DNA of 64,000 nt, from positions 62,001 to 126,000 of the forward strand of contig JAPEUI010000043.1 in the NCBI GenBank assembly GCA_026025075.1, given 5' to 3'. Position numbers and translations under genes: made by a program. Below, piece after piece: positions 26,158-29,464 of this stretch (positions within the stretch are counted from its first letter, which is position 1; each line of letters starts with the position of its first letter). The DNA comes from Vezdaea acicularis (lineage: Eukaryota). The notes below the pieces were generated by a model, which saw only the letters and a program-made list of their open reading frames with translations, ran no database searches and was not told the DNA's origin.

Positions 26158-28514
26158 TCAGCCATTGGATATGTCCGGGTATCGCAGGTCTGCATTCTCC
26201 TCGAGGAAGTCCATCCAGCGTTTGAGGAACTGGCTGCCCCTATAGAGTATTAGCTCTCGTCTCTAGCGCTTCGGCGGAAATAGATCCATCGGTTTCTTAC
26301 CTCCCGACGGTCTCTGAATCGCCGACGACGCAAAGCTGCTGTTTCGGTCGGGTCATAGCGACTGCGCAGACCTAGTCAGTATAGTCTGAATAAGGTGATG
26401 TTGGATTGACCTACCATTGAGCCTTCTCTTCTCGCCCAGAAAGCCCACTTCGCCGTCTGTGTTGCTTCTTACGAGACTGACGATCACTGCGGCTTGCTCT
26501 CGGCCTTGGAAGCCGTCGACGCTGCCGAGATCGATGCCGGGGAATCTCTCTTTTAGAGCCTTTGAAAGCAACGAGAGCTAGTAAACTCATGTCAGTCTCG
26601 GAAATCTTGAAAATTTGTAATAAAGCCTACCTGGGCATTGTAAGGTGTGATCACGGCAATGTCTTCTGCTCTCACACCTGCTTCTACCAGTTTCTCGACA
26701 TGTCTCTTCACGACTTCAACCTCTCCAACATTGCTCTTGCTCTCGACCCCAAACCCTCCTCTTCTCCCGACTTCCTCGTCTTCTGTCGTCTCTGGGAAAT
26801 TTCCGCCTTGCGTGTCCCAGAATATAAGTGGCTCTACAATATCTTCCGTTTCTTCGACCTCGTATGGCAGATCCGTTAGGAGTCGTGATTTGACTGCTGG
26901 ATCCGCGGTAAGCTTAGATTCGTACATTTCTTGTGACGGGAACTGCATAATCTTCTCATGCATACGATATTGCACCGTAAGCATGCGCTTGATGGATTGG
27001 CCATGCAGAGTCAGCAGGCGGTCGAATAGTGTAGTTTCCAGGGCAAATAGTGTTTTAATACCATCAGCAGCTGGTGGCCTTTTCGTCTTCGTGTTCAGTG
27101 ACTTGATCGTGGGGGGGAGTTGTAGGTGGTCGCCAGCGAGAATTGCTTTCTTTGCAGACAGCAGAGGTACCCAGCACTGTGCTTCCAAAGCTTGGCTCGC
27201 CTCGTCGATAATGACGATGTCAAATCGTTCATGGCGCAGTTGGAACCCTCCAGCTCCATGCAGAGTGGCTAAGACAACCTTCGAGCTACCAATGAGGTCG
27301 CTCACACATTTTCGTTCCCTGATGCGAAATTCTTTCCGTAGCTCTTTCAGGTCTCCATAGATTGTTCTCCGCTCGCGCCCGTTTCGAGTTTTGCGTATAC
27401 TCTTCTGCTTGTCGTCCATCTCTTTCCTAACATCATTTACAATAGCAGCAGCATCGGATGTTTGTGTCAAGACGTCAAGAGAATGATTAAGTACCGAGGT
27501 CAAGAGTCGTGCTGGATGCCCCAAACGTACCATTGGGACCTTATGGGGAGCAAGCCGTTCGACAATGTTGTCGACAGAAATGTTGCTGGGGCCGCAGACC
27601 AGAATCCGTTGGTTGCGGAACAATAACTGGCGTATGAGCTCGATCAAAGTATGCGTCTTGCCTGTCTTTTTGGGTTAGTAGGCCTAGAGGAATCTTCGAA
27701 GAGAGCTTACTCCTGGAGGTCCATGGATTAAAGCAATTTCTCTAGATGCAATAGCGAATCTAATTGCGTCCTTCTGAGAATCGTTTAGACTTTCATCAAA
27801 GTATTCGGGCTGGCTTGTGCCAGTCTCAGGGTCATCAAAATGTACTGGACTAGGATGGGAATGCCCGAAAAGGGTACGGATGAATGGGGTGTAATCAGAT
27901 TCATTAGACTTCTCTAATTTGGTCATGGCTTCATTCATTCTATGCGTACGGGTCAGAACTTGACTCTTCTTATTCATGGTATTGAGGAAGATATACCTCT
28001 TATACGTAACATCATTGGCGAGCTTCACTCTAGCCAAATTAGCTCTAAGGTTCTCGAGAGCATAAGCAATTACATACATCCAGAGCCTCCCTCCAGGTAG
28101 TCCTTCATCGCCCTCACCATCTAGAGCGACGGATACCCTTTGAGCACCTACTCTGACCACCACGCCGTCGGAGCCTATTTTCATCATCTCGCCCAGCTCT
28201 TTCTTCCTTTCGCTGCCTTTAGGCTGTACTTGCACACTAACAATATCACCAGTGCGTATGCCATGATCAGCCAGCTCCCCGGCATTCCCAATTGCCGGAT
28301 CAAGCTCAAGCTCCAGAACGGTCTTGCCGCCTAGTCCTGTGCGCTGAGAAGTGACTAAGAGGTTAAGAATGGCAACTCCTGCTCGTTGGAGAGAGGTCGG
28401 AGACGTATGAGCAAGCAGGGCATTAGTAGACTTCAGCTCAGCCTGTAGTTCGGCCTTCAAGAGCTCCAATTGAGTAGAAGCAAATGCAGGAATGTTAGTA
28501 GCCACGAGTGCCAT
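26158..28514 (-). CDS. HCS1: SF1 Upf1-like helicase, Hcs1/IGHMBP2 (SMUBP-2) family, multi-exon
   Basis: LNDSQKDAI, IHGPPG|TGKT, GPSNISVDN, IIDEASQALE, LAGDHLQLPPT, LTVQYRMH, ITPYNAQ, VDGFQGRE and RRLN|VAMTR. Last exon GSQFLKRWMDFLEENADLRYPD ends at TGA 26160-26158. Confidence 0.93.
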
Positions 28515-28785
28515 TGCGTAGAAGTAGCTTCAACAGCTGTAGGAATAAAACAAAGAGCTCCTCTCCAAGTGCCCCTTGCGAGGTGGCTAAAGCAGGGTCT
28601 TGGCTCTAAGAGTCTTGTCAGGTTGGCAGCTGACACTAGCGTCCTGGAACGCTACTGCCTTCTTCACACATTCCCAGTCTCATGAAGCATTTGCAGCATC
28701 TTCTGTTTCTCCAGACGGCCGTTGTGTGCTGTGGGCCCCTGCTGCCTGGCACGCGCTAAAAGTCTTGGCGGTGTTTTCCACCGTC

Positions 28786-28793
28786 TATATAAA
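28786..28793 (+). promoter_or_regulatory. TATA box of the U2 snRNA gene
   Basis: TATATAAA about 40 nt upstream of the U2 5' end. Confidence 0.7.
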
Positions 28794-28832
28794 CAGCTCG
28801 TCCCACCCGCTTCTTCCTCTTTTCTTTTCTTC

Positions 28833-29075
28833 AGCTCTCTTTGCCTTTTGGCTTAGGTATGTCGCCTTTTCCCCGACCACTTTACTGTCGCTGCATCTTG
28901 CTGACTCTGTCGCAGATCAAGTGTAGTATCTGTTCTTTTCAGTTTAATCTCTGAAATGTCTCTAAGGAGGCAAATCGTGATTATACTTATTTTTGAATCC
29001 CGGTTGTGGCCCTCTGTGCTTGCGCATGGTCACAACCACTGTGTCACTGGTATTACACTGCCTCCAGTTGACGCG
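28833..29075 (+). ncRNA. U2: U2 spliceosomal snRNA, split by one spliceosomal intron
   Basis: Exon 1 AGCTCTCTTTGCCTTTTGGCTTAG plus exon 2 ATCAAGTGTAGTATCTGTTCTTTTCAG reconstitutes the conserved fungal U2 5' end, including the branch-pairing GTAGTA. Stem IIa TTTCAG/CTGAAA, stem IIb TGTCTC/GAGGCA, IIc GATTA, Sm site ATTTTTG (28989-28995), stem III GGTTGTGGCC/GGTCACAACC and stem IV with an ATTACAC loop are all present. Mature length ~185 nt. Confidence 0.96.
28857..28915 (+). other. 59-nt mRNA-type (U2-dependent) intron inside the U2 snRNA gene
   Basis: 5' splice site GTATGT, branch site GCTGAC (28900-28905) and 3' splice site CAG. Removal restores GGCTTAG|ATCAAG exactly. Confidence 0.93.
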
Positions 29076-29464
29076 ACTTTTCTTTTTCATCGAATCTTCG
29101 GTTTATCCGTGGGCTCGAAGAAGAATGTACTATGTCCACAGTAGATTCTTGTAGAACGATCGCAGTTGACATGCCTATTGAGATCGTTGCTAGCTTTGAG
29201 AGTGAGGGCTCTAGGCTGCCTAGCAAGATATCTGAAGACTAGAGATCTGGATCGACCCAAGTTTAGTGCCTGCAGTGCGTAGCATGTTCCTAAAACATCA
29301 GACTGAAAGTTGTCCCTTGACTATGTACCGTTGGTGGCCTTGAAAAGCTACCAGAAACCAACGAGTTGTCCCACGCCCGGAGTGAATGAAACGCTTCTAG
29401 AACGTGGGCTGCAATTGTGAGCCCTAACCTGTGTGCCCTAATGTCGGACACACGGGTAAATGGA

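Follow-up and report, generated by a model that had tools for sequence, protein, structure and literature searches.

The stretch of DNA analysed here, referred to below as the window, comprises 64,000 nucleotides (nt) of Vezdaea acicularis (GenBank assembly GCA_026025075.1, contig JAPEUI010000043.1, positions 62,001 to 126,000 of the forward strand). On its plus strand it contains, at 28833-29082, a gene for the U2 small nuclear RNA (snRNA), which is matched by the Rfam family RF00004 with 133.8 bits (E 4.9e-27); this is the sole Rfam family found at gathering score (46 bits) in the 64 kb. As the first-pass annotation of this DNA had pointed out, the gene is structurally complete, has a TATA box and is split by a 59-nt element of the form GTATGT...GCTGAC...CAG, all of which can be read directly from the letters. 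Exon 1 (AGCTCTCTTTGCCTTTTGGCTTAG, 24 nt, 28833-28856, plus strand) makes up the 5′ end and almost the whole of stem I, and it holds the GCU that pairs with the AGC triad of U6. Its proposed first base, which is deduced from the sequence, is located 47 nt downstream of the TATA box TATATAAA (28786-28793, plus strand). Exon 2 begins with ATCAAGTGTAGTATCTG and extends over 28916-29082 on the same strand, as delimited by the Rfam alignment, a minimum free energy (MFE) fold and covariation in the 3′ domain, with an approximate 3′ end. It includes the helix Ia nucleotides AUC, the branch-pairing GUAGUA (28923-28928), the Sm site ATTTTTG (AUUUUUG in the RNA; 28989-28995) and the stem-loops IIa, IIb, III and IV. 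The motif TTTCATC, a candidate 3′-end formation signal shared with the 3′ flank of related genes, follows at 29085-29091.

The exact form of the 5′ end is only recovered if the insert is taken out. A search with the Rfam U2 model, which the first-pass annotation had proposed, does find the gene in the unspliced DNA, but the model misplaces the 5′ end into the intron. The alignment spans 28890-29082 and model positions 1-192 of 192 with zero non-canonical pairs flagged; it begins within the insert, the first ~25 model positions are occupied by intron, and the true 5′ end is thus unscored. Instead, the model makes a stand-in stem I out of the 3′ part of the insert. In a permissive Rfam scan of 28780-29120 the upstream 24 nt gave no separate match. 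This 24-mer is unique in the window, and none of 100 shuffled sequences matches it with three or fewer mismatches. When the two exons are joined by coordinates, the predicted MFE structure of the RNA contains stems I, IIa, IIb, III and IV, and it is only after removal of 28857-28915 that the conserved 5′ end appears, complete with stem I, the GCU of helix Ib and the AUC of helix Ia.

The insert (28857-28915, plus strand, 59 nt) has the features of a GT-AG intron of the U2 type. It starts with the fungal 5′ hexamer GTATGT (28857-28862), contains a CTRAY-like branch motif within the usual 10-20 nt of its end (GCTGAC at 28900-28905, with the branch A at 28904, 11 nt before the 3′ end) and closes with a YAG (CAG, 28913-28915). 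Its removal restores the conserved uninterrupted U2 sequence to the nucleotide; in 32 of 53 listed intronless relatives the same 24-mer directly abuts ATCAAG. The junction falls between G24 and A25 of this U2, at the base of stem I. The first-pass annotation had assigned it to G26|A27 in yeast numbering, in U2/U6 helix Ia and beside the GCU of helix Ib, and this agrees with the numbering of the helix Ia and Ib nucleotides in the accessible text of PMC4081067, against which it was checked, the site being at the edge of helix Ia. In our own reading, A27 and U28 of U2 (helix Ia) would be the A and U past the junction, and C22 (helix Ib) would be the C located five nt before it. In the 3′ part of the intron (28897-28918, UCU..UGAC-loop-GUCG.AGA) a possible hairpin can be drawn, the same that Rfam takes for stem I; in the precursor, the branch site would lie within it. 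This hairpin was observed for the intron of the window only. An origin of the intron by tandem duplication of exon 1 was considered and rejected, as only 9 of 24 positions match the intron 3′ end when compared by eye.

The first-pass annotation had also called for a survey of related fungi for the same intron position. A metagenome scan with the 35-nt start of exon 2, a pattern that begins with AG regardless of whether an intron precedes it, yielded at least 119 fungal-type U2 loci, and all counts on relatives given here are among the matches listed. For detection, nt 25-59 had to be contiguous, and introns in that part are invisible to the scan. Loci were classified by the presence of the 24-mer of the window upstream, either contiguous or split by a GT...AG element, and a branch site was not required. 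Those left unexplained by this rule were sorted by eye: L025, L093, L096 and L104 are intronless variants, and L044, L082 and L097 are split genes whose 5′ part is outside the locus. In total, 57 loci (53 by rule and four by eye) have no intron in the first 24 nt and 56 loci (53 complete and three partial) have one, while five are too short upstream. The remaining locus, L062, is odd: exon 1 continues to GCCT and is followed by GTAAGC and CTAAC, but there is no AG ahead of TGGCTTAG. This gene may have decayed, may use a 3′ site other than AG or may be wrongly assembled.

The 53 complete introns occupy 16 of the 20 positions between nt 5 and nt 24. Nine loci are split after nt 11 and nine after nt 24, so that the intron of the window is the tenth at position 24. 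Eight loci have the intron at nt 6, four each at nt 7, nt 9 and nt 18, three at nt 10, and two each at nt 5, nt 8 and nt 13; single loci are found for nt 15, 16, 17, 19, 21 and 22. After removal of the intron, 45 of the 53 split loci rebuild the 24-mer of the window exactly. Introns are also present further downstream. In six loci a GT...CTAAC...AG intron follows stem-loop IIa at about nt 63-66, i.e. ~39-42 nt into exon 2 (L009, L065 and L069, all three of which are also split at nt 24, L090, which is also split at nt 18, and L059 and L089, both without a 5′ intron). An intron in the 3′ terminal loop was found in L027 and probably in L056. Some U2 genes thus possess two introns, and two contigs each hold two split copies with differing introns (L046 with L047, and L033 with L055).

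The signals of these introns are highly consistent. We compared 50 unique U2 introns, that of the window included, which had been chosen only by GT...AG and exon restoration. A CTRAY-like motif is present in all 50, always with the A at a distance of 10-19 nt from the 3′ end, although the chance of such a motif is only ~0.06 per intron according to a hand estimate. The branch motif is CTAAC in 30 introns, CTAAT in 11, CTGAC in seven and another sequence in two. Among the 5′ hexamers GTAAGT (15) and GTACGT (12) are the most frequent, followed by GTATGT (8), GTCAGT (8) and others (7), and the 3′ ends are CAG (32), TAG (12) or AAG (6). Lengths range from 48 to 164 nt with a median of 56 nt. The intron of the window is at the mode of this set in its signals, its length and its branch-to-3′ distance. 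A few introns are unusually long, namely those of L014 and L097 (164 nt each) and L086 (110 nt), compared to the usual 48-74 nt.

Compensatory base changes indicate that split genes are working genes. For 42 distinct split genes, that of the window again among them, we aligned the variable 3′ domain; the loci with second introns (L009, L065, L069, L090, L027 and L056), downstream-short loci and duplicates were left out, and stem IIa, being part of the invariant core, is outside this test. RNAalifold predicted 23 pairs, and double changes with the pairing kept were found in 19 of them. Altogether 93.9% of the cells pair, compared to 34-50% if the partners are slid against each other, and the number of cells with double changes is 239, compared to 19-53 in the slid registers. 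None of 500 shuffles attained the observed values on any measure. Because of this strong compensatory covariation we regard the split genes as functional. Furthermore, the tree of the listed loci contains clades in which only split genes occur: all nine genes of one clade have the intron at nt 11 (support 97), all four of another at nt 18 (support 100) and all three of a third at nt 10 (support 99); a clade of four genes split at nt 9 (support 90) was not starred. Since U2 is essential, the split genes of these lineages would therefore have to be spliced.

The flanking sequences of split and intronless genes show common elements. A TATA[TA]A motif, scored in this strict form only, precedes U2 at a distance of 33-62 nt in 43 of 53 intronless and 25 of 54 intron-bearing loci. 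In 35 of 82 loci, compared to 0.7 expected from shuffles, TTTCATC follows the conserved GAYGCRA at the end of U2 by 3-20 nt. Both classes have it, with 10 loci among 36 intronless genes and 25 among 46 split ones. From its place and recurrence, it may serve as a signal for 3′-end formation. In addition, a palindrome-like element, CTAGCG/CGCTAG, was observed upstream of 43 of 97 loci compared to 9.7 expected. Its copies cluster 60-103 nt upstream of the U2 start, just ahead of the TATA box, and such an arrangement may point to an snRNA promoter element. The window has a copy of this type at -197 (28636-28641).

The U2 gene and its intron signals, the exact restoration of the exon sequence, the recurrence of the same architecture in relatives and the structural constraint acting on split genes are direct observations, and on this basis the locus is a genuine intron-containing U2 gene and very probably the spliced, working form. 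We infer the start of transcription, the splicing and the dependence on pre-existing U2 from the sequence. The primary transcript would start ~47 nt downstream of the TATA box and carry the 59-nt intron. Spliceosomes already holding mature U2 would excise it and join 28856 to 28916, and the product would be a canonical U2 of ~190 nt, with its first 59 nt identical to those of the U2 of intronless relatives. The contiguous GGCUUAG-AUCAAG, which is needed for the U2/U6 helices Ia and Ib, would be formed only in the spliced RNA. The intron is one of the many short introns that fungal U2 genes carry within their first 24 nt. If it is spliced, U2 would depend on U2-containing spliceosomes in a manner that parallels the case of U6. 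The first-pass annotation had spoken here of a possible feedback loop; this is a fair inference provided that splicing takes place, but such a loop is generic to any snRNA intron and would be positive, not homeostatic.

Several observations weigh against this interpretation. The gene of the window could not be placed in the tree, its best identity among the listed loci being 72% (to L060, which is also split at nt 24), and in the lack of a close orthologue the conservation of its particular intron has no support. The intron is unlike all nine others at position 24 among the matches listed (z -0.6 to 2.7). There is no exact CTAGCG-type copy in the usual upstream zone of the gene, only the near-match CGCTAA at about -78. 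Moreover, our view of the genome is confined to the 64 kb of the window, and an intronless U2 gene could be located elsewhere. In one related lineage such a coexistence is seen: the genes L005 and L107, split at nt 24, group with the intronless L010, L074 and L110 and have nearly the same mature sequence (support 94), so intronless and split forms can occur side by side. The last two points would suit a silent or decaying U2 copy, in which the insert is tolerated as the copy is not needed, the working U2 being encoded by an intronless gene elsewhere. We nevertheless consider such a copy improbable. All U2 elements and base pairs are intact, the splice signals are optimal for the group, the TATA box and the 3′-flank motif are in place, the 3′ domain fits the covarying structure of the 42 split genes, and several of the listed clades contain split genes only. 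Another conceivable explanation is that the insert is retained and the RNA starts near 28890, with the insert hairpin proposed by Rfam serving as stem I. The end-to-end alignment of the model over 28890-29082 and the canonical pairs of the stand-in stem would agree with this. But the stand-in lacks the conserved GGCUUAG, and helix Ib and upper stem I would be lost; a perfect 24-nt U2 5′ end is located at the right distance from the TATA box, bounded exactly by GT and AG, and the split layout recurs in 56 listed relatives with unrelated insert sequences. We therefore give this explanation hardly any credence.

A separate question, compatible with a spliced U2 gene, is how the intron arrived at this site. 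Reverse splicing at nucleotides of the active site, followed by reverse transcription and recombination, would be one route. The junction in helix Ia, adjoining helix Ib, conforms to it, and reverse splicing is the explanation given for snRNA introns in the accessible text of PMC5855946. In this respect that source also agrees with the statement of the first-pass annotation that reverse splicing is held responsible for introns in snRNA genes, which are known mainly from U6 and from the U2 of one basidiomycete. Position 24 comprises the most unrelated intron families (six of the 37 obtained by single-linkage clustering), and at no other site among the listed loci do the exons provide an AG|R context. 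This fits the remark of the first-pass annotation on the AG| context, which may make position 24 a favoured site; on the other hand, most of the other sites are without AG|. Introns are spread over 16 of the 20 sites in nt 5-24 and are also found near nt 63-66 and in the 3′ terminal loop, which weakens the claim that the position is meaningful due to the catalytic helix. The site of the window is one of many, and therefore its position in a catalytic helix alone is no evidence for reverse splicing at the active site; with introns at so many U2 sites, no sharp focus on the catalytic nucleotides is apparent among the listed loci. The accessible text of PMC5855946 also describes introns in U1 and ribosomal RNA (rRNA), away from the active site. 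In addition, the distribution is truncated by the blindness of the scan to nt 25-59, and some introns at nt 9 and nt 11 share 3′ sequence (z 8-9), suggesting short slides instead. Taken together, we consider gain at the active-site nucleotides to be rather unlikely.

The distribution of intron positions among the relatives may reflect turnover. The tree of the variable part (109 rows, 215 columns) was derived from a quick search with 45 of 101 inner branches unresolved, and only strong groupings are used here. Many intron positions are specific for a clade. In contrast to these, one tight clade (support 100) combines L003 and L103 (intron at nt 7), L018 (nt 16), L100 (nt 17), L044 (nt 10) and the intronless L087, and L063 (nt 22) and L119 (nt 21) join it by identity, the bodies being 89-97% identical. 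L003 and L063 originate from the same metagenome and are 88% identical in the upstream 150 nt, 97% in the body and 97% in the first 36 nt downstream, but their introns are located at nt 7 and nt 22, respectively, with an identity of 65%, which is barely above the 13-61% of shuffled sequences. About 75 nt past the U2 3′ end of L003, next to its complete gene with the intron at nt 7, we observed an inverted fragment. It joins U2 upstream sequence to exon 1 as far as GGCTT and to the beginning of an intron similar to that of L063 (nt 22). The fragment may be a trace of recombination among U2 copies that differ in the place of their intron, or else an artefact of the assembly.

Sequence similarity between introns (z of at least 5) is found in 25 of 133 pairs at the same position and in 15 of 1,298 pairs at different positions. 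The strongest of the latter are introns at nt 9 paired with introns at nt 11, where the region from the branch site to the 3′ end is shared, and short slides of introns are thus possible in places. The number of families is not equal to the number of gains, because intron sequence decays quickly. It is conceivable, and we put this forward only tentatively, that in filamentous ascomycetes introns have repeatedly been gained, lost and moved in the 5′ stem-I region of U2. This region would then be a hot spot, with nearly all phosphodiester bonds between nt 5 and nt 24 occupied and with a turnover rapid enough to leave unrelated introns 15 nt apart in L003 and L063. Should these introns have arisen by reverse splicing of excised introns into the U2 RNA of the spliceosome itself, followed by reverse transcription and by gene conversion among the copies of U2, they would provide the richest natural record of a route of intron gain that has long been proposed but never observed.

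An intron-split U2 is a kind of gene already known, to which the gene of the window adds a member. An mRNA-type intron inside a U2 gene was likewise described for Rhodotorula hasegawae (Takahashi et al. 1993, via the accessible texts of PMC5855946 and PMC2396436). In the accessible part of the 2018 review on U6 (PMC5855946) this is the sole example of a U2 intron, and the 2008 screen of spliceosomal RNAs (PMC2396436) cites the same work for Rhodotorula. Rhodotorula hasegawae is a basidiomycete yeast and belongs to another phylum, and it represents a single case, whereas a population with variable positions is found here. The Rhodotorula intron is reportedly located just downstream of the branch-pairing sequence and not in stem I or helix Ia. 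Our searches of open PubMed Central (PMC) papers and bioRxiv turned up no U2 intron described for an ascomycete; an earlier description is possible, as subscription journals were outside this search. That about half of the sampled fungal-type U2 genes are split, at 16 positions within 20 nt, appears to be unreported in the literature searched.

The fungal U6 introns (Schizosaccharomyces pombe; Tani and Ohshima 1989, 1991) are likewise short spliceosomal introns in an snRNA of the catalytic core. They occur at several positions, for which multiple insertions were proposed, and are spliced by a machine that contains U6, as would hold for U2. However, U6 is a transcript of RNA polymerase (pol) III and U2 of pol II, and, unlike those of U6, the U2 introns of the listed loci crowd into the first 24 nt and leave first exons of 5-24 nt. 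A further parallel is the fungal U3 small nucleolar RNA (snoRNA), according to the accessible text of PMC5832005 also a TATA-driven gene for a capped small RNA with short canonical introns at its 5′ end. Of 138 U3 introns, 133 are located in the 5′ half of the first stem-loop, at lineage-typical positions (PMC5832005). U3 is not a component of the spliceosome, and that text gives three dominant positions in contrast to the 16 among the U2 loci listed here. Ascomycetes of the Pezizomycotina also have spliceosomal introns at many sites of their ribosomal DNA (rDNA; Bhattacharya et al. 2000, via the accessible text of PMC5855946), which likewise codes for structured non-coding RNA but, unlike U2, is transcribed by pol I. 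According to a study on A. fumigatus from 2008 (PMC2377427, accessible text), the two U2 loci listed measure 276 and 277 nt and the alignment of U2 succeeded only in part; unrecognised introns would fit these findings as a candidate reading.

The route of spliceosomal intron gain is a long-standing open question, and introns in snRNA genes are a classic argument for reverse splicing, for which, in the case of U2, the accessible parts of the reviews cite one example from 1993. The gene of the window leads to dozens of listed U2 genes in which 16 neighbouring sites are taken by short introns, with some lineages in which the position is fixed and one clade in which it differs between near-identical copies. 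An invariant exon of 24 nt makes this a compact and alignable system, in which gain, loss, sliding and gene conversion are separable with named genomes and RNA data. For genome annotation, the case of RF00004 at the window illustrates that covariance models misplace the 5′ end of intron-split U2 genes. Such misplacement may be the reason why the U2 of filamentous fungi was called only partially alignable in the accessible text of PMC2377427.

An open reading frame (ORF) of 111 amino acids at 28591-28926 on the plus strand overlaps the U2 gene and was dismissed as a chance frame. The divergent neighbour on the minus strand (26592-28529) is a gene of the DNA polymerase alpha-associated DNA helicase A type, whose relatives contain the Pfam domains PF13086 and PF13087. 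Between the U2 start and the end of the most upstream long ORF of this gene there are ~300 nt. The helicase ORF at 26592-27674 (minus strand) marks the window as DNA of a filamentous ascomycete: its best named relatives, at 70-76% identity, are distributed across the Pezizomycotina classes Sordariomycetes, Leotiomycetes, Lecanoromycetes and Dothideomycetes.
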